A DNA stretch of 64,000 bases from a virus, in the IMG/VR virus record IMGVR_UViG_3300037067_022550; one strand, given 5' to 3'. Position 1 is the first letter of the stretch, and the number at the start of each line of letters is the position of its first letter. The notes beneath the pieces are model-generated. The model worked only from the letters and a program-made list of their open reading frames with translations. It was not told where the DNA came from and did not search any database. This document shows, one piece after another, positions 1-56,205 of this stretch. The translations under genes were made by a program, and so were the position numbers.

Positions 1-652
1 TGGCATCTCTCATGCTACCTCGAGATATTTTTGCAATATTTGTAAGCACATTATCCACTATTTCTATTTTTTCTTTTTTAGCTATTTGTTTTAAGTGGTT
101 AAACATTTCTTGCGTAGATATTTGATTAAAAATAAAGCTCTGACATCTTGAAGTTATAGTGGATGGAACTTTTCTGTGATCTGTTGTACAAAATATAAAA
201 GTAACATAAGATGGTGGCTCTTCTATTATTTTAAGAAGAGAATTCCATGCTTCTGTAGTAAGCATATGACACTCATCTATGATATATATCTTCTTTTTTA
301 ACTCTTGAGGAGCATAATTGGCAGTTTCTTTTATTTTCCTGGCATCATCTATGCCTCTCTTGCTTGCAGCATCTACTTCATAAACATCAACACAATAACC
401 GTTATGTATACTAGTACACGACCTACATTTACCACATGCAAGATACCCTTCTCTATGTTCGCAAGTCATCAAGGCAGAAATAATTCTTGCAATACTAGTC
501 TTACCAGAACCAAATTGACCAGCAAAAAGATAAGCATGACAAAACTTATCTTTTTCAGCTTGTTTTTTTATTGCAGAAACTATTTTATGCTGACCAACAA
601 TATCAGTAATTTGTATTGGACGCCATTTAGTATATAACGGTATGTTATTCAT
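1..652 (-). CDS. dnaX: DNA polymerase III gamma/tau clamp-loader subunit (DnaX-like), 3' end truncated by window start
   Basis: Minus-strand ORF starting at ATG at 652 (MNNIPLYTKWRP...), running off position 1. It has the YTKWRP...VGQ motif, a Walker A motif (AGQFGSGKTS) and a CxxC...C zinc module followed by DVYEVDAAS. The ORF track does not list it because it has no stop in the window. Confidence 0.7.
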   Translation of the reverse strand, partial: MNNIPLYTKWRPIQITDIVGQHKIVSAIKKQAEKDKFCHAYLFAGQFGSGKTSIARIISALMTCEHREGYLACGKCRSCTSIHNGYCVDVYEVDAASKRGIDDARKIKETANYAPQELKKKIYIIDECHMLTTEAWNSLLKIIEEPPSYVTFIFCTTDHRKVPSTITSRCQSFIFNQISTQEMFNHLKQIAKKEKIEIVDNVLTNIAKISRGSMRDA

Positions 653-1733: not shown

Positions 1734-2636
1734 TTAATTGTTAGCTATCCATACAGCACTATCACTTGCTCCTACAAAGGGAGTGGTAGCAACATAAGGC
1801 TCATTAGAACCACTTGCAGAACTTGGAGTAGGATTGTATAATACTTTTAATGACCACTCATCATCCCCTAATTTAAATTTTAATGTATCACTACTTGTAT
1901 TGTTCCAAGTATTAAAACCATATGTCCCTATACTTCCTGTAACTTCTTGCATTCCCAACCTTAATGCTTTTGGCCCATAATAATTACTATTTGTAACATA
2001 GTCGCTTTCAGGACCAGAAACATAAATAGGCAAAACATTGTTTTTAATATTAATTGAAAATGCCTGTATATCACCGTTTAAACTAGACGTAATAACGCAT
2101 TGATCCCAAGTTAACAATTTAGTGCATGAACTTTTTTTATAAGCAGTAGGAGTTCCTTCATTTTTCTTTGCAACCACGCCAACTTCAAAACTAGAAACAT
2201 CACCAGCATTTATAGTTAAAGTTAATGATTCAACTACTGCATTTTTAATTTGATGACCTTCTTTGGTTCCTGATCCGTCTGGAGAAGAAAAATATATAAA
2301 ATCAATTTGAGAAATTTCCGTTCCTTTAATGGCATATTCTATAAGACTTTTTGCATTTAGTGTAGAACCATCTACTGACATGGGAGCTGAAAATTTCCCC
2401 TTAAATATAGATGGCGGGTATCTATATATTTTCTTTTGAATGTTGTTATATCCTCCAGCCTTATCGTTATCTGTTTCTGGACCTTTTATATTTGTTCCTG
2501 TGTAATTTGTATCTCTTAAACCAACAACATGATCATAAAATTGGATGCTGTTTTCTATTCCGGAATTCATAGATAAAACAGGGATAATAGTAGTATTATC
2601 TAATATACAACTGCCTATATATGCCATTCTAGCCAT
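1734..2636 (-). CDS. hypothetical protein
   Basis: 300-aa ORF with no recognisable motif; Gly/Ser/Thr/Asn-rich, possibly structural. Confidence 0.4.
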   Translation of the reverse strand: MARMAYIGSCILDNTTIIPVLSMNSGIENSIQFYDHVVGLRDTNYTGTNIKGPETDNDKAGGYNNIQKKIYRYPPSIFKGKFSAPMSVDGSTLNAKSLIEYAIKGTEISQIDFIYFSSPDGSGTKEGHQIKNAVVESLTLTINAGDVSSFEVGVVAKKNEGTPTAYKKSSCTKLLTWDQCVITSSLNGDIQAFSINIKNNVLPIYVSGPESDYVTNSNYYGPKALRLGMQEVTGSIGTYGFNTWNNTSSDTLKFKLGDDEWSLKVLYNPTPSSASGSNEPYVATTPFVGASDSAVWIANN

Positions 2637-2662
2637 AAAAATAATTCTCCACTATTATATGA

Positions 2663-3325
2663 TTAAATATTTTTGCCACAACATTTTTTATATTTAATTG
2701 GTTCACCATTTATTTTTTTAGCCCCACAAGGACAAGGATCATTTCTTCCAACCTTAATCTTATTTCTCTCAATTGGTATACTCTTAACACAAAATTCTGT
2801 AATTATTTTCCCTTTAAAATGGTCAAGTTCATGCTGAATTGCTATTGTAACAATCTTATTGTCAACTAAGAACTTTTCATCATCCTTTTCTGTGGGATAA
2901 TTTAAATATATTTTATCTGTTATTAATATGTCCCCATCTATTCTATCATTTTCAATTACTAAATGTTTATATCTGTAAGTATTAAAAAACTGACCAGGAA
3001 ATGATAAACAACCTTCATTGAAAAACAAAAATTCTTCTTCCGCTTCAATAATTTTGGGATTAATTAGGCAAAAGTACTCCTTGCTGTTAAAAAACTCCTT
3101 TTTTAATACTGCAATTGTTTTAGGAATACCTATTTGAATGGCCGCTAACCCAACTCCATTTGGTTCATTATCTAATGTTGATTTGATATTTTCAACGATT
3201 TCTAGGGCTTCCTGGGCTGTTCTAACTGGTTCAGAAACTTGCTTTAAAACATTAATATCTCTAACTATTTTATTGAATCTCCCCACGAATGAATTCTGGG
3301 GATTCCTGATTACTAAGCTACACAT
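2663..3325 (-). CDS. def: peptide deformylase with C-terminal SEC-C metal-binding motif; 5' end overlaps the IS605 right end
   Basis: PDF motifs GVGLAAIQIG, EGCLSFPG and QHELDH. C-terminal DPCPCGAKK...KCCGKN resembles the SEC-C motif. The first 17 codons are encoded by the IS end hairpin sequence. Confidence 0.7.
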   Translation of the reverse strand: MCSLVIRNPQNSFVGRFNKIVRDINVLKQVSEPVRTAQEALEIVENIKSTLDNEPNGVGLAAIQIGIPKTIAVLKKEFFNSKEYFCLINPKIIEAEEEFLFFNEGCLSFPGQFFNTYRYKHLVIENDRIDGDILITDKIYLNYPTEKDDEKFLVDNKIVTIAIQHELDHFKGKIITEFCVKSIPIERNKIKVGRNDPCPCGAKKINGEPIKYKKCCGKNI

Positions 3326-3480
3326 AGTATAGCCTTTCTTTCGAGGCTTATTCCAAGCCCAGCATTGATAACTACCACGGCAGAATTAATATCTCTGTCG
3401 TGATCCGCCCCACAAGCGGAACATACCCAATGCCTTACCTTGAGCCCGCCCAATCCTGTGGGGCCGGTCAAAGCTCCGCA
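3284..3480 (-). ncRNA. putative omega (right-end) guide RNA of TnpB
   Basis: By the architecture of IS200/605 TnpB systems, the omega RNA overlaps the 3' end of tnpB and ends at the RE boundary. Only about 30 nt separate the tnpB stop from the RE hairpin. This is inferred and not seen directly. Confidence 0.3.
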
Positions 3481-4374
3481 GTCCGAACAGGTCATAGTGG
3501 TCTTTCTTGAATTTACCGGAATTATATTCCTACCGCAGATACTGCCCTTGTAGGTTATAAACTTTGCCAACTGTCCCAACCCAGCTTCCGTTACTGACTT
3601 GCCAAAAATTCCTGCTGCCATACCCTTAAAGTTGTCGTCACTGTAGCAAATGGTCTTGTAGTTTTCCACCAGCTTCCTGCTTATCTTATGGTTACGATCC
3701 AGTCTTCTATTAGCTTGCCTTTCCTGCAACCTTGCTGTCAACGCTTTTCTATGTCCTCTTTGAGCTTGAGCAAGGCGTTCTGCCCCTTTATGAAGCTCTC
3801 TAGGATTTTCGATCTTAGTGCCGTTGGACAAGGTTAGCAAGGTATCAAATCCAGGGTCTATTCCAACAGCAGTATTAGTTTCTTTGACTGTGAAAATATG
3901 TATTGTATCTAACCAAAGGCAGAGATACCAACCGGAAGCTTTCTTAACTATTCTACCGCACTTGATTTCTGCATTTGGCAATTCCTGTTTGACGAAGCGA
4001 ACTTTCTTCAATCCAGGAATACTAATTTTACCGTCCTTTGGTGGATTAATTGGATCTGGAAAGGGAATGGAATTGAACTTGTTGTGTCTTCCCTTGAGAT
4101 GTGGTTTCTTGGCTTGCTTTCTAAAACACTTTTTCCAAGCATCATAAACTTGAGATAGAGTTCCCTGAATAGTATGAGAAGGAATGCCTAGTTTCTTTCC
4201 GTGGTCAGCCAGTAAGTTGTGGAATGTCTTCTCAGAAAAGTAGATATTGTCTTTAGCATTAAGTTCTATTTTTTTAAGACCAAAGTTATATACACCCGTT
4301 AAGTTATTAAGCCATCCGTTTAGTGTTTGCTCTTGCTTCTTGGTTGGTCTAAGTTTTAGGGTTCTTACTATCAT
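3313..4374 (-). CDS. tnpB: TnpB (OrfB) RNA-guided nuclease-family protein
   Basis: 353 aa. C-terminal RuvC-III plus zinc ribbon (CSDCGALTG...HWVCSACGADHDRDINSAVVV). N-terminal OrfB helix-turn-helix-like region. Confidence 0.8.
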   Translation of the reverse strand: MIVRTLKLRPTKKQEQTLNGWLNNLTGVYNFGLKKIELNAKDNIYFSEKTFHNLLADHGKKLGIPSHTIQGTLSQVYDAWKKCFRKQAKKPHLKGRHNKFNSIPFPDPINPPKDGKISIPGLKKVRFVKQELPNAEIKCGRIVKKASGWYLCLWLDTIHIFTVKETNTAVGIDPGFDTLLTLSNGTKIENPRELHKGAERLAQAQRGHRKALTARLQERQANRRLDRNHKISRKLVENYKTICYSDDNFKGMAAGIFGKSVTEAGLGQLAKFITYKGSICGRNIIPVNSRKTTMTCSDCGALTGPTGLGGLKVRHWVCSACGADHDRDINSAVVVINAGLGISLERKAILCVA

Positions 4375-4784
4375 GTTTTTTTCTGTGCCTCTACATATTT
4401 TTTAATGGAAGACAAAGGATCACCACCAACTGTAGACAGGAAATAAGAATTTGTCCAAAGAGTGGGCAATCTAGTTCTCATCCACTTATATTCCTGTCTA
4501 AGATACTTAGATGATCTTCCTTTTAACTGCTTAACAAGTTTGTGTATTCCATATTGCGGATTGACTTCCACAAGCATATGAACATACTCTGGTAAAACTT
4601 CTAATGCCAAAATATCAGCTTGGCGTTCTTGACAAACTCCAGAAAGAATACTTTTAAGTCTTTTTTCAGAACCGTCAACTAAAACTTTCCTTTTGTATTT
4701 CGTACACCAAACGATGTGGTACTTTGATGAATAAACTACATTAAAACTAGACTTATAACCTTTCATACCTACATTATACCACAA
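4371..4784 (-). CDS. tnpA: IS200/IS605 Y1 (HUH) transposase TnpA
   Basis: 137 aa. YHIVWCTKYKRKVL (HuH) and Y-containing C-terminal half typical of IS200 TnpA. Confidence 0.8.
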   Translation of the reverse strand: MWYNVGMKGYKSSFNVVYSSKYHIVWCTKYKRKVLVDGSEKRLKSILSGVCQERQADILALEVLPEYVHMLVEVNPQYGIHKLVKQLKGRSSKYLRQEYKWMRTRLPTLWTNSYFLSTVGGDPLSSIKKYVEAQKKT

Positions 4785-4876
4785 ATAACTGTATAATCCT
4801 TCTTTTTATTTAACTTATTTTGTTTTGCCTTACCCCACGAATGAATTCGGGAATGTAGTTCAAAAGACGGCTCATT

Positions 4877-5101
4877 TTATTTACCTGTATCAAATTTATA
4901 AAAATCTTCCTCAGCTGAATTATTTGTTACTGGAGATGAATAGTATATTGCACTAGAATAACCTTCTGGAACTATTTCTGGCAATTTAGCCCAATCATAT
5001 GCAGCTTTATAAGTACAACCACAATTCCAAACACCTATTACTGGCTTGTCTTTATTGGGTTTAATTTCCTGCCTACAAACTGAACAAACAAATTTAGCCA
5101 T
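4877..5101 (-). CDS. small zinc-ribbon protein
   Basis: CSVC...CGC cysteine pairs; 74 aa. Confidence 0.4.
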   Translation of the reverse strand: MAKFVCSVCRQEIKPNKDKPVIGVWNCGCTYKAAYDWAKLPEIVPEGYSSAIYYSSPVTNNSAEEDFYKFDTGK

Positions 5102-5122
5102 AATATTATCCTATCTTTAATT

Positions 5123-5830
5123 TTACACATATCTTATTCTTGTATTTTTTATCTTTTGTCTAGCTATATTTAATAATTTTTGAACATCTTCTTTTTCGTA
5201 TAACTTAATTTTATCAGACAAATTACATCCAAGTAGGTTATTTTTCATTCTAAATTTTTGTAAAAACCAATTAGAATTATTTTTAATCTTAGTTGATATA
5301 GAAATAATATCTTGTTCATCAACTAATTCAGGAAACAGTGTAGTTCTAAATTCATGATCGACATTTTCACTATTCAAAATATCTATAGATTCTAAAATTT
5401 CGTAAAATACACAAGATTTGTCGCTAACAATATCCCACTTTTTTAAATCACAAAACCCGGTTTTAACATCCATTGCCACAAAAGAAACCATTTTATGAAA
5501 TATTAAGTTTTGCAATATTACAGGAAAACTACCATTAGTAGAAATTCTTACCTGAAAACCGTTGTTTTTTAGTTTTTCAATATATTCATATATTCTTTCG
5601 TTATTAAGCGGCTCTCCACCAGATATAAGAATTTTTTCTTCTTTACCCTTATATTTTTCAATAATAAAATCAAGTGGTATTTTCTTGTTATTTTCTTTTC
5701 TTACCAATTTTGCGTTTAAACAATAAGGGCATTTGAAATTGCAACCTTCTAAAAAAATTACTGGACATAAAACGTCTGGGAAACCAGCTTCTGCAATATC
5801 ACCATAACCTGCTACAAAAAGAGTTTCCAT
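5123..5830 (-). CDS. radical SAM activating enzyme (anaerobic RNR activase NrdG / PflA-like)
   Basis: N-terminal GCNFKCPYCLN (CxxxCxxC) and ILISGGEPL; about 235 aa. Confidence 0.6.
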   Translation of the reverse strand: METLFVAGYGDIAEAGFPDVLCPVIFLEGCNFKCPYCLNAKLVRKENNKKIPLDFIIEKYKGKEEKILISGGEPLNNERIYEYIEKLKNNGFQVRISTNGSFPVILQNLIFHKMVSFVAMDVKTGFCDLKKWDIVSDKSCVFYEILESIDILNSENVDHEFRTTLFPELVDEQDIISISTKIKNNSNWFLQKFRMKNNLLGCNLSDKIKLYEKEDVQKLLNIARQKIKNTRIRYV

Positions 5831-20842: not shown

Positions 20843-22036
20843 TTAACCTTTTGTTTCTTGTGATATAATTTCAGAGGCTTCTTTTGGCAACTCGTCACTA
20901 TCTTGGGTTGTATTTAATTCAGCATCAATTGCTTGAATGTTTAAGATTTCTTCTGATAAAGTAATTCCTTTTTCTTCTGCCTTTTCTTTCATAACCCCAA
21001 TTAATTCCAATACCTTGTTGTTCTTAGTAAACCACTCTGCCAATGAAATAAAGTCAGTACAACCAGTAACTTCTTGATCTTTACCCTTACCAAATACATA
21101 TGTCATCTTTTCTTCTATATTTTTTCTGCTAACTGCTTTAATTTCATAAGCATATTTTACAAGATTAACTATAGGATTATTTGCTCCTTCATTAAACTGC
21201 ACTTCAAATTCCCCTTCTCCAAATGGGGCTGCAACCTTATTTTTTACAACCTTAATTTTACTATTAATAGCTACTACCTTACTATCATCTTCAGTTGCTC
21301 CTTTTTCTTTGACATTTCCAGTCCTAACAACTCTTAGCCTCATGTGAGAATAAAATTTCAAAGCTCTGCCACCAGGAGTAGTTTCTGAATCTCCCCATGC
21401 AGGTTTATTAATACTTAATTTCTCTCTGATTTGATTTACCCAAACAACTGTAGTATTTGTTTTTGAGCTTGAATCCATAATTTGTCTAACAGCTTTTGAC
21501 ATCATTCTAGCAGCAATACCTGGATTAGAATCTATAATATCACCATCAATTTCAGTTTTAGGTATTAAAGCTGCAGTAGAATCAACCACAACAAGAGATA
21601 CTATTCCGGATGCACATAGTTTACTGACATATTCCAAGGCTTGTTCTCCATAATCAAAATCAGCACCATACAGAAGGTTGCCTATGTCTACTCCGTTTGA
21701 AGATGCCCATTGTGGTACAAAACTGTGTTCTATATCAATGAGTGCAGCTTTTTGTCCCATCTTTTGGGCAGAAGCTATTAATTTTAAAGTTAAATAGCTT
21801 TTACCACCAGATTCCGGACCAAAAAGCTCTATCATTCTACCTCTTGGAACACCGCCAATATTTGTGGCATCATCAACAGATTTAATTCCGAAAGGTATGA
21901 CTTCGATGTTCATCCTATTGTCTTTATCCATATAAGATGAAAACAACTGAATTTTAGGTCTACCATCTTTATTTCCAAGACCTTTTTCAAGATTTTCCAA
22001 TGCAACGCTAATATCTTGTCCTTTTTTTTCTTTCAT
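20843..22036 (-). CDS. recA: RecA/UvsX-family recombinase
   Basis: GGVPRGRMIELFGPESGGKSYLTL Walker A region and L1/L2 region; 397 aa. Confidence 0.8.
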   Translation of the reverse strand: MKEKKGQDISVALENLEKGLGNKDGRPKIQLFSSYMDKDNRMNIEVIPFGIKSVDDATNIGGVPRGRMIELFGPESGGKSYLTLKLIASAQKMGQKAALIDIEHSFVPQWASSNGVDIGNLLYGADFDYGEQALEYVSKLCASGIVSLVVVDSTAALIPKTEIDGDIIDSNPGIAARMMSKAVRQIMDSSSKTNTTVVWVNQIREKLSINKPAWGDSETTPGGRALKFYSHMRLRVVRTGNVKEKGATEDDSKVVAINSKIKVVKNKVAAPFGEGEFEVQFNEGANNPIVNLVKYAYEIKAVSRKNIEEKMTYVFGKGKDQEVTGCTDFISLAEWFTKNNKVLELIGVMKEKAEEKGITLSEEILNIQAIDAELNTTQDSDELPKEASEIISQETKG

Positions 22037-34406: not shown

Positions 34407-34552
34407 ATTTTATTCTCCTTTTAAGAATATTTACATATTATTCTTACTTCATTTAAATTTAACCTTTTTATTTGGTTATATTTATTAAATATTTCTTTTT
34501 ATTGAAATATTATTAACTAAGAATATGGCAAAATCCTTTATTTAATAAAAAG

Positions 34553-34624
34553 AGCACCTTGAGGGAATCGAACCCCCGTCTGAAAGTTTGCAGCTTTCTG
34601 CCTGAACCACTCGACCAAAGGTGC
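34553..34624 (-). tRNA. tRNA-Cys (GCA)
   Basis: Cloverleaf fits. Anticodon stem GAAAG/CTTTC with loop CTGCAAA, and T-arm GGGGGTTCGATTCCC. Confidence 0.65.
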
Positions 34625-34631
34625 TTGAAAA

Positions 34632-34710
34632 TGGTGGGGGAGAAGGGAGTTGAACCCATATTTTCGGATTTTCAGTCCGTTTCCGATTGACCGCGTTGGA
34701 ACACTCCCCC
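34632..34710 (-). tRNA. tRNA-Phe (GAA), somewhat irregular D-arm
   Basis: Acceptor GGGGGAG/CTCCCCC, anticodon loop CTGAAAA, T-loop TTCAACT, and CCA encoded. Confidence 0.55.
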
Positions 34711-34724
34711 ATTACAAGTAAAAC

Positions 34725-34800
34725 TGGTAGTGTCGGTGGGATTCAAACCCACAATTTCAAGCTTCGGAGGCTTGTGCCCTATTCATTAGGCTACAACACT
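34725..34800 (-). tRNA. tRNA-Arg (CCG)
   Basis: Anticodon stem CAAGC/GCTTG with loop CTCCGAA; T-arm GTGGGTTTGAATCCCAC. Confidence 0.65.
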
Positions 34801-34803
34801 ATT

Positions 34804-34884
34804 GGTAGCCCTGACAGGATTTGAACCTGCATTTTCATTTCCATTATGCACTTGACGGGTAGAAACCGCCGCCACTACAGGGCT
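34804..34884 (-). tRNA. tRNA, anticodon undetermined (irregular anticodon/variable region)
   Basis: Acceptor AGCCCTG/CAGGGCT, T-arm GCAGGTTCAAATCCTGT and CCA are clear. No clean 5-7-5 anticodon arm was found. Confidence 0.45.
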
Positions 34885-34891
34885 ATAAAAA

Positions 34892-34982
34892 TGGTGGCGT
34901 CGGATGGATTTGAACCACCAGCGTTTAGCCATAGGCACCTGATTTACAGTCAGGCGGTTTCAGCCAATTCACCCACGACGCC
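34892..34982 (-). tRNA. tRNA-Tyr (GTA), class II long variable arm
   Basis: Anticodon stem CCTGA/TCAGG with loop CTGTAAA; long variable arm; T-arm GGTGGTTCAAATCCATC. Confidence 0.65.
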
Positions 34983-45002: not shown

Positions 45003-45077
45003 TGGTGGACCCAGGGAGAATCGAACTCCCACTAAAAGCTTGCAAAGCTCCCGTGCTACCATTATCACTATGAGCCC
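45003..45077 (-). tRNA. tRNA-Ala (UGC), solitary
   Basis: G3:U70 pair, anticodon loop TTTGCAA, T-arm GGGAGTTCGATTCTCCC, and CCA encoded. Confidence 0.65.
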
Positions 45078-53941: not shown

Positions 53942-54018
53942 TGGTGGAACCAGTGGAAGTTGAATCCACACTTACAGGGTGCAGACCTGTCGTGCTATCC
54001 GTTGAACACTATGGCCCC
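53942..54018 (-). tRNA. tRNA-Ala (UGC) with G3:U70; unusual C at position 33
   Basis: Acceptor GGGGCCA/TGGTTCC, anticodon stem ACAGG/CCTGT with loop TCTGCAC, and T-arm GTGGATTCAACTTCCAC. Confidence 0.55.
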
Positions 54019-54028
54019 AAAATTAAAC

Positions 54029-54105
54029 TGGAGCGGGAAACGGGAGTCGAACCCGTACCTGAACTTAGGCAAAGTCCCATGCTAACCATTGAACACCATT
54101 CCCGC
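54029..54105 (-). tRNA. tRNA-Gly (GCC)
   Basis: Anticodon loop TTGCCTA; T-arm ACGGGTTCGACTCCCGT. Confidence 0.6.
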
Positions 54106-54114
54106 ACTAAAAAT

Positions 54115-54197
54115 TGGTGGGCGGAGTGGGACTCGAACCCACGACGCTTACGCAACAGGGTGTAGACCTGTCCTCCTAGCCACTAGAGTACCCGCCC
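54115..54197 (-). tRNA. tRNA, anticodon UAC (Val?) with C33 and an extended variable region
   Basis: Acceptor GGGCGGG/CCCGCCC, anticodon arm ACAGG-TCTACAC-CCTGT, variable region about 12 nt, and T-arm GTGGGTTCGAGTCCCAC. Confidence 0.45.
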
Positions 54198-54250
54198 AAA
54201 AATTGTTTTATCATTATGTATTATACAAAAAAACATTTATTTCTTCATGA

Positions 54251-54324
54251 AGCCCAAGGAGGGATTTGAACCCCCAACATTCTCAGTACGAAAGAGATGT
54301 TCTACCAATTAGAACTACTTGGGC
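54251..54324 (-). tRNA. tRNA-Thr (CGU)
   Basis: D-arm GTTC/GAAC, anticodon loop TTCGTAC, T-arm GGGGGTTCAAATCCCTC; CCA not encoded. Confidence 0.55.
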
Positions 54325-54331
54325 AAAAAAA

Positions 54332-54406
54332 TGGAGCCGCAAATTGGATTTGAACCAATGACCCCGATCTTACCAAGATCGTATTCTGCCCCTGAACTAT
54401 TGCGGC
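54332..54406 (-). tRNA. tRNA-Thr (GGU)
   Basis: Anticodon stem CGATC/GATCG with loop TTGGTAA. Confidence 0.6.
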
Positions 54407-54432
54407 ATTAAATTATTTCATTTCAATTTGTA

Positions 54433-54469
54433 GCTGAAGTCTGGAATTGAACCCACAAGCATCTTCAGC
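54433..54469 (-). other. tRNA-like minihelix / truncated tRNA remnant (acceptor-like 7-bp stem + T-arm-like loop)
   Basis: GCTGAAG-(TCTGGAATTGAACCCACAAGCAT)-CTTCAGC; too short for a full tRNA. Confidence 0.3.
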
Positions 54470-54474
54470 AAAAT

Positions 54475-54549
54475 TGGTACTCCCATCGGGACTCGAACCC
54501 GCTTCACCAGATTAAAAGTCTGGTACTTCACCATAAAAGCTTTGGGAGC
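54475..54549 (-). tRNA. tRNA-Lys (UUU)
   Basis: Anticodon stem CCAGA/TCTGG with loop CTTTTAA; G1:U72. Confidence 0.6.
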
Positions 54550-54555
54550 AAAAAA

Positions 54556-54631
54556 TGGTGATTGCGGGGGGACTTGAACCCCCAGCGTCCAGGGTAAGAA
54601 CCTGGCACTCTGCCAATTGAGTTACGCAACC
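54556..54631 (-). tRNA. tRNA-Lys (CUU)
   Basis: Anticodon stem CCAGG/CCTGG with loop TTCTTAC; T-arm GGGGGTTCAAGTCCCCC. Confidence 0.65.
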
Positions 54632-54636
54632 GAAAA

Positions 54637-54714
54637 TGGTGGGTGCTGTGGGATTTTGACCCACGACTCCCAGGGTAAAAACCTGGTACTCTGTTCATGC
54701 TGAGTTAAGCACCC
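54637..54714 (-). tRNA. tRNA-Lys (UUU), paralog of preceding gene
   Basis: Same anticodon stem, with loop TTTTTAC. Confidence 0.65.
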
Positions 54715-54721
54715 GAAAAAT

Positions 54722-54795
54722 TGGAGCTGGCGGCGGGTACGAGACCGCATAATCCTCATTACAAGAGAGGCACATAACCTTTCTGTCACGCCAGC
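54722..54795 (-). tRNA. tRNA-Thr (UGU), irregular T-arm
   Basis: Perfect acceptor GCTGGCG/CGCCAGC; anticodon loop CTTGTAA; T-loop region non-canonical. Confidence 0.45.
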
Positions 54796-54799
54796 ATAA

Positions 54800-55429
54800 T
54801 TAATAACTTTTTTCACTTTGATATCTAAGTTTTCTATAAAATCTTCCGTTTCCTCTGTTCTTTCCTTTATATGTTGATGTTTGCATATCACAATTTCCGC
54901 ATATTAATCTTAAATTTAAAATACTCCAATTAGTAGAATTACCGTCTATGTGGTCTAACACTAAAGGAACTTCTTTTCCCATCCATTCTGTTGTTCCGCA
55001 TATTGTGCATTTTCCACCTTTAGTTTCTTTTAAATATCTTCTTGCAACTTTAGAATTAAAAATAGGATTTAAAAAAGCATTTCCTTTTGATTCTATTGCT
55101 TTCTTTTTTAAACTCCACTCAAAATCCTTTTGACATTTAATAGTACAATATTTTCTATTGGAAAATAATAATTTTTTACCACAAAATAAACAATTAGATG
55201 GTTCTTCTCCGTGTCTTCTTACTCCTTTGTTATTAAATGAAGCAGCACAAGAATGATTACAAAAAGTTAAACGTCTTTTTTTATATGATAAAACAGAATT
55301 GCAGAATTTACATATTTTGGGATTTGAAATATAATTTTCTCTAAACTTTTTAAATCTTTCTTGATTTTTAATATTAGATTTTTCTGATCCAATCTTACCA
55401 GCTTCCGAACAACTCATTCCTTTTCTCAT
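54800..55429 (-). CDS. HNH homing endonuclease embedded in tRNA array
   Basis: CTICGTTEWMGKEVPLVLDHIDGNSTNWSILNLRLICGNCD plus several CxxC. Confidence 0.6.
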   Translation of the reverse strand: MRKGMSCSEAGKIGSEKSNIKNQERFKKFRENYISNPKICKFCNSVLSYKKRRLTFCNHSCAASFNNKGVRRHGEEPSNCLFCGKKLLFSNRKYCTIKCQKDFEWSLKKKAIESKGNAFLNPIFNSKVARRYLKETKGGKCTICGTTEWMGKEVPLVLDHIDGNSTNWSILNLRLICGNCDMQTSTYKGKNRGNGRFYRKLRYQSEKSY

Positions 55430-55518
55430 TTTTGAACTCCTTATCAGTTGTTAATATACAACTGCTATATGGTTCAAAAATGATTTGTGGCTAACCTGCT
55501 TTTATTTTTCAACAAAAA

Positions 55519-55592
55519 TGGAGCGTCCCAACGGATTTGAACCGTCTCCCAGACCTTGGAAGGGTCTAATGCTACCGTTACACCAGGGACGC
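55519..55592 (-). tRNA. tRNA-Gly (UCC)
   Basis: Anticodon stem AGACC/GGTCT with loop CTTCCAA. Confidence 0.6.
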
Positions 55593-55618
55593 ATCTTTTC
55601 ATTATACAACAAAATAAT

Positions 55619-55697
55619 TGGAGCACCTAATGGGATTTGAACCCATACCATCAGCTTGGAAGGCTGTCATGCTAGATCCGTTGAACACCATAGGTGC
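55619..55697 (-). tRNA. tRNA-Gly (UCC), second copy with longer D-region
   Basis: Anticodon stem CAGC/GCTG with loop CTTCCAA; T-arm ATGGGTTCAAATCCCAT. Confidence 0.5.
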
Positions 55698-55706
55698 ATT
55701 TAAAAA

Positions 55707-55791
55707 TGGTAGGGGGGCGGTATTTATCCAATTATGTGCATTTAAAGCCTCTTGGTTATGAGCCAAGCGATAAAAGCTTTACCTACCCCGC
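55707..55791 (-). tRNA. aberrant tRNA-like element with CAU anticodon arm (possible pseudo-tRNA)
   Basis: Clean anticodon arm CTTGG-CTCATAA-CCAAG, but no canonical T-arm and an acceptor with a 5' extension. Confidence 0.3.
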
Positions 55792-55956
55792 TATAAACTT
55801 TTCAGGGATTTCACGAAATGTTCCACTGTTGGCGACCCGACCGCCATCTTCCTGGTGACCCAGGCGTGCTCCATACACCACGTAGCGTCTATCCTTTTTA
55901 GGTTACTGCCCTTTAGTTCGTCAACTTTCAGGCACACCTCTTGCAAGATTTCAAAT

Positions 55957-56033
55957 TGGTAACGGGGGCCGGATTTGAACCGGCGACCTACAGGTTATGA
56001 GCCTGCCGAGCTACCAGGCTGCTCCACCCCGTA
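55957..56033 (-). tRNA. initiator tRNA-fMet (CAU)
   Basis: Near-identity to bacterial tRNA-fMet (GGGGTGGAGCAGCCTGGTAGCTCG...CTCATAACC...GGTTCAAATCCGGCCCCCG) with a 1:72 mismatch. Confidence 0.8.
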
Positions 56034-56041
56034 ATATTAAA

Positions 56042-56118
56042 TGGTAGCAGGGATGGGACTTGAACCCACAACCTACGGGTTATGAGCCCGTGAAGCTTCC
56101 TATTGCTAGCACCCTGCA
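56042..56118 (-). tRNA. tRNA-Met or tRNA-Ile2 (CAU)
   Basis: Anticodon stem CGGG/CCCG with loop CTCATAA; T-arm GTGGGTTCAAGTCCCAT. Confidence 0.6.
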
Positions 56119-56129
56119 AATCAGTAAAA

Positions 56130-56205
56130 TGGTGCCGGGGAGGGGAATTGAACCCCTGATCTTTCGGGTATGAGCCGAACGTCTTGCACACTCGACCACC
56201 CCGGC
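56130..56205 (-). tRNA. tRNA-Met or tRNA-Ile2 (CAU)
   Basis: Anticodon stem TTCGG/CCGAA with loop CTCATAC; T-arm AGGGGTTCAATTCCCCT. Confidence 0.6.

Follow-up and report, generated by a model that had tools for sequence, protein, structure and literature searches.

The 64,000-nt stretch of viral DNA analyzed here (IMG/VR virus record IMGVR_UViG_3300037067_022550; hereafter the window) very probably carries an IS608-like insertion sequence (IS) of the IS200/IS605 family that entered a phage peptide deformylase gene (def) 3' of the pentanucleotide ATGAG, 5 nt into the reading frame, as single-stranded DNA and without duplicating its target. The single-stranded route is what knowledge of the family would lead one to expect. 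The element spans positions 3273-4870 on the minus strand (1598 bp) and is a member of a known IS608-like group rather than a new kind of system. What sets it apart are its particulars: a jumbo-phage-like host, an auxiliary gene split at its start codon, a transposase that is probably dead, and a TnpB family with a non-canonical RuvC-II motif. The features of the interrupted locus, from the left end (LE) to the right end (RE) of the element and into def, are listed below; slashes in sequences mark junctions or cleavage sites.

4871-4875, minus: target pentanucleotide ATGAG, predicted target-adjacent motif (TAM) of TnpB; holds the orphaned def ATG (4875-4873)
3273-4870, minus: complete IS200/IS605 (IS608-like) element, in the order LE, tnpA, tnpB/omega RNA, RE; delimited by relatives' ends, gap-free rejoining of the flanks onto L191, and Logan contig ends
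4852-4870, minus: LE linker, 19 nt from cleavage site to hairpin foot; read from the sequence, 17-21 nt in relatives
4833-4851, minus: LE subterminal imperfect hairpin CCCGAATTCATTCGTGGGG; 5' arm two C shorter than in relatives
4371-4766 (4784 if the start is TTG), minus: tnpA, 131-aa Y1 HUH transposase; Pfam Y1_Tnp E=3e-39, NCBIfam transpos_IS200
3313-4374, minus: tnpB, 353 aa; Pfam OrfB_IS605 E=5e-12, Cas12f1-like_TNB E=6e-16
3273-3434, minus: predicted omega-RNA scaffold, overlapping the 3' end of tnpB; covariation over 11 right ends
3281-3301, minus: RE subterminal hairpin CCCCAGAATTCATTCGTGGGG, preceded by GGAAT; one C-to-A mismatch compared with relatives
3273-3277, minus: RE terminus TTCAA/, with right cleavage site TCAA; the identity of five relatives stops after TTCAA
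3257-3272, minus: predicted omega-RNA guide and TnpB target TAAAATAGTTAGAGAT, def codons 2-7; flank directly 3' of the RE
2663-3325, minus: fused def open reading frame (ORF), 220 aa; the IS supplies residues 1-17 and 2 nt of codon 18

Empty sites and boundaries of the element

That the segment is an insertion and not ancestral sequence is indicated by relatives that lack it and by the gap-free rejoining of the window's flanks onto their intact def. Two tiers of such relatives were recovered. In the first (L039-L042, 70-74% nucleotide identity), a radical-SAM gene is followed directly by def and then by the tail-tube gene; def begins MIQIVRDINVLKQ in these loci, and the alignment to the window breaks between 5127 and 3270. 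The second tier, L191 and L192, is 90% identical to the window at the nucleotide level over 1.8 kb and carries a homologue of ORF74, the small ORF that precedes def in the window, followed directly by def. The uninterrupted site in both reads ATGAT/TAAAATAG, and def in L191, the closest relative, is intact and starts ATGATTAAAATAGTT; the rejoined flanks of the window read ATGAG/TAAAATAGTT. When L191 (...GGTAAATAAAATGATTAAAATAGTTAGAGAC...) is compared with the window flanks joined at 4871 and 3272 (...GGTAAATAAAATGAG/TAAAATAGTTAGAGAT...), there is no gap and a single mismatch, at the base before the junction. A def search in IMG/VR gave only 28-32% identical matches; the useful relatives came from the protein database, where the Def cluster holds 204-aa members starting MIKIVRD that are encoded on L191 and L192. 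The first-pass annotation, made from the letters of the window alone, had proposed looking for genomes without the insertion; L039-L042, L191 and L192 are such genomes and supply both the empty site and the original def start, and the segment was not found as ancestral sequence in homologous genomes.

Five contigs, drawn from ENA, JGI and Logan assemblies, carry the same junctions with 100% or 99.99% identity, which argues against an assembly artefact. One could nevertheless suppose that nothing was inserted at all, the segment being either ancestral, with a def that naturally has a long N-terminus, or a chimera assembled from bacterial IS reads and a phage contig. The element is indeed present in a single copy, and no near-identical donor was found in any database, the nearest tnpB being 86% identical at the amino acid level with a synonymous divergence (dS) of ~0.9. 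Such a supposition is nonetheless extremely improbable given the empty sites in two tiers of relatives with gap-free rejoining, the recurrence of identical junctions across independent assemblies and assemblers, and the fact that all 12 Def homologues compared start ~3 residues before the IVRD motif.

The ends were placed by comparison with other copies. For the right end, the window agrees with five relatives (72-86% TnpB identity) in reading ...GGAAT-hairpin-AGRTTCAA/ with unrelated sequence beyond, and since the relatives diverge immediately past TTCAA, the right end was set at 3273. At the left, ten left ends, among which are two pairs representing the same element at different sites, agree on (W)TGAR/C followed by a 17-21 nt linker and the hairpin, with unrelated sequence upstream; this agreement puts the left end at 4870, directly after ATGAG. 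The resulting junctions are AAAATGAG/CCGTC at the LE and GATTCAA/TAAAATAG at the RE, with linkers of 19 and 8 nt, respectively. The ends given at first pass, 3283 and 4872, are therefore revised, by 10 nt at the right end. A TGAGCCG string shared by three relatives was considered as a left-boundary marker and discarded as coincidental, since a larger set of left ends places the relatives' conserved site, TGAA/C, 17-21 nt before the hairpin. The relatives' TTTTGAGCCGCATT is homologous to TTTTGAACTACATT inside the element of the window, and the boundary at 4870 stands on the other grounds just given.

The 16-mer CCCCACGAATGAATTC is present in exact copies at 3281-3296 and 4833-4848 (plus-strand positions) within imperfect palindromes, just as the earlier reading had it. 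Both hairpins lie on the minus strand and the 16-mer forms a direct repeat between them; covariation of the hairpin is seen among relatives. The element is also richer in guanine and cytosine (GC) than its surroundings, although the contrast (39.5% against 30.0% for the rest of the window) is smaller than the 45% against 27% first proposed. Within it, tnpB has 42.1% GC and tnpA 34.1%, and 45.5% is reached only in 3273-3900. Only 5 of 297 equal-length windows match the element's value, and the only other 1-kb bins with at least 40% GC contain the tRNA clusters. No second copy of the element was found in the 64-kb window; an RE-like match at 21385-21398 (12/14) falls inside recA and was set aside as chance. 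Promoter and terminator scans gave no signal above shuffled expectation. A megablast search of isolated phages with 12 kb of sequence found nothing, and a sensitive blastn search with the element returned only a 68-nt match.

Possible coexistence of filled and empty alleles in one sample

The Logan assembly of SRR8542065 offers a hint of how the insertion is distributed. Its left-flank contig ends exactly at 4871, and a separate contig, 4900-3243, extends exactly 30 nt past the element on either side, which is k-1 for the assembly k of 31. Such a break pattern is what one would expect if the flanks, not the element, had two continuations, that is, a filled and an empty allele with identical flanks, and it suggests that the two alleles coexist in this sample. 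The alternatives to an isogenic empty allele would leave other traces: with an L191-like strain, the break in the graph would fall one base earlier on the left and within the first 30 nt on the right, while with an RE-LE circle junction it would fall at 3273. Look-ups for the right-flank Logan contig returned only the ENA contig.

Element mobility

Both element-encoded proteins passed the Pfam and NCBIfam models, in agreement with the Y1 transposase and TnpB identities given at first pass, and both genes fall in PHROGs annotated 'transposase'. TnpA scored 127 bits against NCBIfam transpos_IS200 (cut-off 55), and its closest solved structure is ISHp608 TnpA (phmmer E=6e-44, residues 4-129). The element as a whole resembles IS608 (ISHp608, from Helicobacter pylori) in the tnpA-tnpB order on the active strand, in subterminal imperfect palindromes with a bulged T, and in insertion 3' of a short specific sequence without duplication. 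IS608 has a 19-nt LE linker, a 10-nt RE linker and the target and right cleavage sites TTAC/TCAA (PMC3201880, PMC3597680); the element in the window likewise has a 19-nt LE linker and TCAA at its right cleavage site, but its target is (W)TGAR and its RE linker is 8 nt long. It further differs from IS608 in the Y-V-H motif of TnpA, which replaces H-V-H, in its compact 353-aa TnpB with Ser at the RuvC-II Glu position, and in its phage-like host.

These comparisons also indicate that the copy is probably no longer able to move itself. The HUH motif of TnpA reads Y61-V-H63, so that IS608 H64 is Tyr here (PEYVHML versus KDHIHIL), while IS608 H66, Y127 and Q131 are kept as H63, Y124 and Q128. Position 61 is His (motif HVH) in 18 of 19 homologues, including the 92%-identical P0244 and P0245, and mutation of H64, H66 or Y127 inactivates IS608 TnpA (PMC3597680). 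The TnpA of the window is a family member by homology and of doubtful catalytic competence. The LE hairpin retains three of the five C seen in all other left ends compared, and its folding energy is no better than that of shuffled sequence (z = 0.29); in the RE hairpin, the C-to-A change opens a base pair that is present in all relatives. Because a Tyr at the first HUH His coincides with two hairpins weaker than in every relative, we consider the copy probably non-autonomous.

The alternative would be a fully active, autonomous IS that tolerates the His-to-Tyr change and the weaker hairpins, the polymorphism then reflecting ongoing TnpA-driven excision and insertion in the phage population. 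We think this unlikely. It fits the intact state of both ORFs and their strong purifying selection relative to relatives (ratio of nonsynonymous to synonymous substitution, dN/dS, 0.04-0.13, the full range being that of tnpA), the retention of the catalytic Y124 and Q128, the occurrence of YVH in the homologue P0363, and the SRR8542065 contig breaks exactly at the junctions. However, the ratios are averages along a long branch (the nearest relative lies at dS ~0.9-1.2) and are blind to recent decay, and this alternative has to contend with the inactivating effect of the H64 mutation in IS608, the near-universal His in homologues, the loss of two of five C from an LE hairpin that folds like shuffled sequence, an RE stem mismatch absent from all relatives, and the presence of one copy only in 64 kb.

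Consequences for def

The body of def (2663-3272) remains intact: it encodes the three catalytic motifs (GVGLAAIQ, EGCLS and HELDH) as well as a SEC-C motif at the C-terminus, and its product matches Pfam Pep_deformylase (E=3e-27). The native N-terminus seen in the homologues is missing; the original ATG (4875-4873) and the next two bases remain on the left flank. With this ATG stranded on the far side of the element, only starts internal to the IS would be usable, and the def body is in frame with two of them. The first, ATG 3325, lies 10 nt upstream of the tnpB stop, has AAAGG 7 nt upstream, and was used by the ENA gene callers (220 aa). The second, GTG 3286 (3286-3284), lies in the 3' arm of the RE hairpin and was the JGI choice (207 aa). 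Def would thus be translatable only from one or other of these codons, with an N-terminal extension of 4-18 residues. A hybrid def start, or else disruption of the original one, had been proposed at first pass; the hybrid start is borne out, as are the 17 IS-derived codons, which prove to be 17 codons plus 2 nt. The accompanying claim that def starts inside the RE hairpin applies to the alternative GTG but not to ATG 3325, which lies upstream of the hairpin in the last codons of tnpB. Both candidate starts fall within the predicted omega-RNA scaffold, so that translation of Def could face competition from TnpB binding.

The orphaned ATG, with the native def upstream region, opens a 21-codon ORF, MSRLLNYIPEFIRGVRQNKIS (window 4875-4810, minus), that runs through the LE hairpin and ends ~40 nt before tnpA. 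At the other end of the gene, the C-terminus of Def (window 2663-2760, minus) carries a SEC-C-like CPCG...KKCC tail that is unusual among peptide deformylases; the tail has an insertion, AKKINGEPIKY, in the window lineage where other homologues read CPCGSGKKYKKCC.

TnpB and its RuvC-II motif

The tnpB frame overlaps tnpA by ATGA. Its product scored 185 bits against NCBIfam guided_TnpB (cut-off 100), and the closest solved structure is ISDra2 TnpB from Deinococcus radiodurans (8BF8/8EXA; phmmer E=4e-15). Motifs shared with ISDra2 TnpB include the RuvC-I Asp (D173, in GIDPG), the DRDxN RuvC-III motif (D326-R-D328, in DRDIN) and a C4 zinc finger (C296/C299/C318/C321); also shared, as a prediction, is a structured RNA that overlaps the 3' end of tnpB, runs to the RE and takes its guide from the flank. 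The window protein differs in its length, which is ~55 aa less, in a deletion of ~20 aa between RuvC-I and RuvC-II, and in reading Y-S-D-D-N at RuvC-II where the canonical motif is x-E-D/N-L-N; its TAM is a predicted one. The residues S245-D246-D247 in this motif (window 3631-3645, minus; residues 244-248) include a D247 that is invariant in the alignment, which suggests a relocated acidic residue. The family, which shares both the Y-S-D-D-N motif and the deletion of ~20 aa, is large (more than 2000 database proteins at E<=0.001, the 120 matches listed all being at least 66% identical), and dN/dS of tnpB against relatives is 0.06-0.09. For several clades of TnpB, conserved rearrangements of RuvC-II have been described that are considered compatible with activity (Altae-Tran et al. 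2023, PMC10691335). The present family is like these clades in that the Glu is replaced family-wide and the rest is strongly conserved, but it has Ser followed by Asp-Asp where the RIIr-5 clade has Gly (PMC10691335), and it was matched to none of the named RIIr clades (RIIr-3, RIIr-4, RIIr-5 and others).

TnpB genes are common in phages and have dedicated PHROGs; in a search of 50,697 isolated phage records, 337 matched the window TnpB, all at 32% identity or below. Two relatives of the element, L043/L201 (~60-215 nt past the LE hairpin) and L046/L194, have in place of tnpA an ORF of 44-51 aa with a CxxC...CxxC zinc ribbon that overlaps the tnpB start. This ORF had no Pfam or NCBIfam match above cut-off and may be an uncharacterised IS605 accessory protein.

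Predicted omega RNA, guide and TAM

To characterize the right end as RNA, 11 right ends from elements with 66-100% TnpB identity were aligned over their last 190 nt and folded with RNAalifold. The consensus has five helices with 42 pairs, and 96.7% of the alignment cells at these positions are paired, compared with 38-49% when partners are slid. Compensatory changes were found in 23 of the 42 pairs, as against 10.5 ± 1.9 in shuffles (none of 500 reached 23) and 3-9 with slid partners. The terminal hairpin differs completely between lineages (CCCCCGAATT.., CCCCCGGCTT.., CTGCGGGGCTT.., TTCTATTAC..) with its pairing kept, and a further stem (GGCTATAC...GTAGCT in the window), outside the 23-pair count, covaries by eye. 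Covariation thus supports a conserved, structured RNA at this end of the element, in line with the omega RNA postulated at first pass. Its predicted guide, TAAAATAGTTAGAGAT, is unique in the window.

The target (W)TGAR/C read from the ten left ends is also the predicted TAM of TnpB. A TAM is expected to equal the transposon target, and that of ISDra2 is TTGAT. Derivation of the target from an IS608-style pairing between guide and cleavage site (RCAT 5' of the hairpin with TGAR) is speculation. Hairpin CCCCCGAATTYATTCGTGGGG also occurs elsewhere: it is found in many near-identical short repeats of cyanobacteria, namely Scytonema sp. PCC 10023 (L064, L068, L089, L090, L095, L117 and others) and likewise Microcoleus loci (L066, L080, L091 and others). 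Several further TnpB lineages have it at their right ends, which finish in AGTGTCAA, AGCGTCAC or AGTATGTCAA. The terminal omega-RNA hairpin is thus shared well beyond this IS subgroup.

Observations that weigh against the interpretation

A number of observations pull against one or another part of the picture drawn so far. For the allelic polymorphism, the suggestion comes from contig break points alone: the protein predicted for the empty allele, MSKIVRD..., was absent from a 15-billion-protein collection by exact look-up, and the empty junction was not found in IMG/VR. For the probably crippled transposase, P0363, one of the 19 homologues, also has Y-V-H, and the substitution might be tolerated. 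For TnpB, the canonical RuvC-II Glu aligns to S245 (Y-S-D-D-N) across the whole family, which makes nuclease activity an assumption. An Rfam scan of 2500-5500 at E<=1 gave no family at the right end, and the TAM fit is imperfect: at target position -1 the window has G, the empty-site relative has T, and 8 of the 10 other sites have A. Finally, the phage identity is based on a weak tail-tube match, replication genes, tRNAs and an extent of ~264 kb, with no capsid or terminase gene in the window.

Possible homing or domestication

If TnpB is active, TnpB with its omega RNA would recognise the TAM (W)TGAR followed by TAAAATAGTTAGAGAT, which is the uninterrupted def allele, and would cut ATGAG/TAAAATAGTTAGAGAT where that site is naive or has been rejoined. 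The element would then be restored by recombination with a genome that bears the IS, for which a phage-encoded RecA is available, so that cutting would favour its retention or homing. Retention and homing of this kind through recombination are established for TnpB elsewhere. It is conceivable, if rather doubtful, that the transposase-crippled IS605 acts in a jumbo-phage population as an RNA-guided homing element, which would cut def in co-infecting sisters, be copied in by RecA repair, and leave a new in-frame def start that is tolerated and gated by TnpB. The element would be tolerated because its right end supplies def with that start. The corresponding site in the sister lineage L191, ATGAT followed by TAAAATAGTTAGAGAC, has a different base at TAM position -1 and another at guide position 16, which makes homing across lineages uncertain. 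The free-standing and intron-encoded homing endonucleases of T4-like and jumbo phages offer an analogy (PMC13565253): both would be selfish nucleases in a conserved phage gene region, with predicted cutting of the uninterrupted allele in co-infecting relatives. The element in the window differs from them in being RNA-guided, as predicted, and in having, or having had, a transposase route.

About as tentative is the idea of a domesticated, immobilised TnpB locus, a phage gene cassette that would cut IS-free competitors at def or regulate def. It is in keeping with the degradation of TnpA and both hairpins beside an intact tnpB and omega-RNA scaffold, with close TnpB relatives lacking tnpA in viral contigs (L006, and L043/L046 with the zinc-ribbon ORF), with the RecA of the phage, and with a guide that matches a conserved phage gene. 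Yet any IS605 element has, by default, a guide that matches its flank, and such a match does not point to exaptation; the closest relatives lack the element, which is thus no conserved phage feature; and the RuvC-II motif is non-canonical.

The insertion is a clean natural case of a TnpA/TnpB/omega-RNA element in a large phage, with exact ends, a known empty site and hints of coexisting alleles. It leaves the current understanding of IS200/IS605 elements unchanged. As a convenient system, it lends itself to asking whether TnpB homes between co-infecting phages, what TAM is used by a compact TnpB family with Ser-Asp-Asp at RuvC-II, and whether a phage auxiliary gene such as def can survive replacement of its start codon by transposon sequence.

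Genomic context

All genes in the 1.7-6.6 kb interval lie on the minus strand. Around the interrupted def they are:

5830-5123, minus: radical-SAM gene
4877-5101, minus: ORF74, 74-aa Cys-rich ORF between the radical-SAM gene and def; no family match
2636-1734, minus: tail-tube-like gene; weak match, 30 bits against a cut-off of 27

ORF74 is present in the window and L191 and absent from the L041 lineage, in which the radical-SAM gene and def overlap by ATGA. The first-pass annotation had implied a bacterial genome; the context instead looks like that of a jumbo phage, and the window is likely its replication region. It encodes a family-B-type phage DNA polymerase (phrog_405, E=2e-240), SbcC-like and SbcD-like proteins, a primase and a methyltransferase, and RecA (20843-22036, minus; Pfam E=1e-79) adjoins the Toprim primase. 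The exact TnpB and Def proteins were found on a JGI contig of 263,965 bp. Eighteen tRNA genes, including three tRNA-Met and three tRNA-Lys, form three clusters (34552-34982, 45003-45077 and 53942-56205), of which those at 34.5-35.0 kb and 53.9-56.2 kb fall together with the other GC-rich bins (GC fractions of 0.38 and 0.36-0.43).

The clamp-loader gene differs between lineages as well. In the 70%-identity relatives L039/L040 (3632-5836), its 734-aa product includes an intein and a LAGLIDADG endonuclease; in the window lineage the gene lacks both and encodes 370 aa (L188 7723-8835; window 1-652 is the 5' part). This presence and absence of the intein represents a second mobile-element polymorphism in this phage group.

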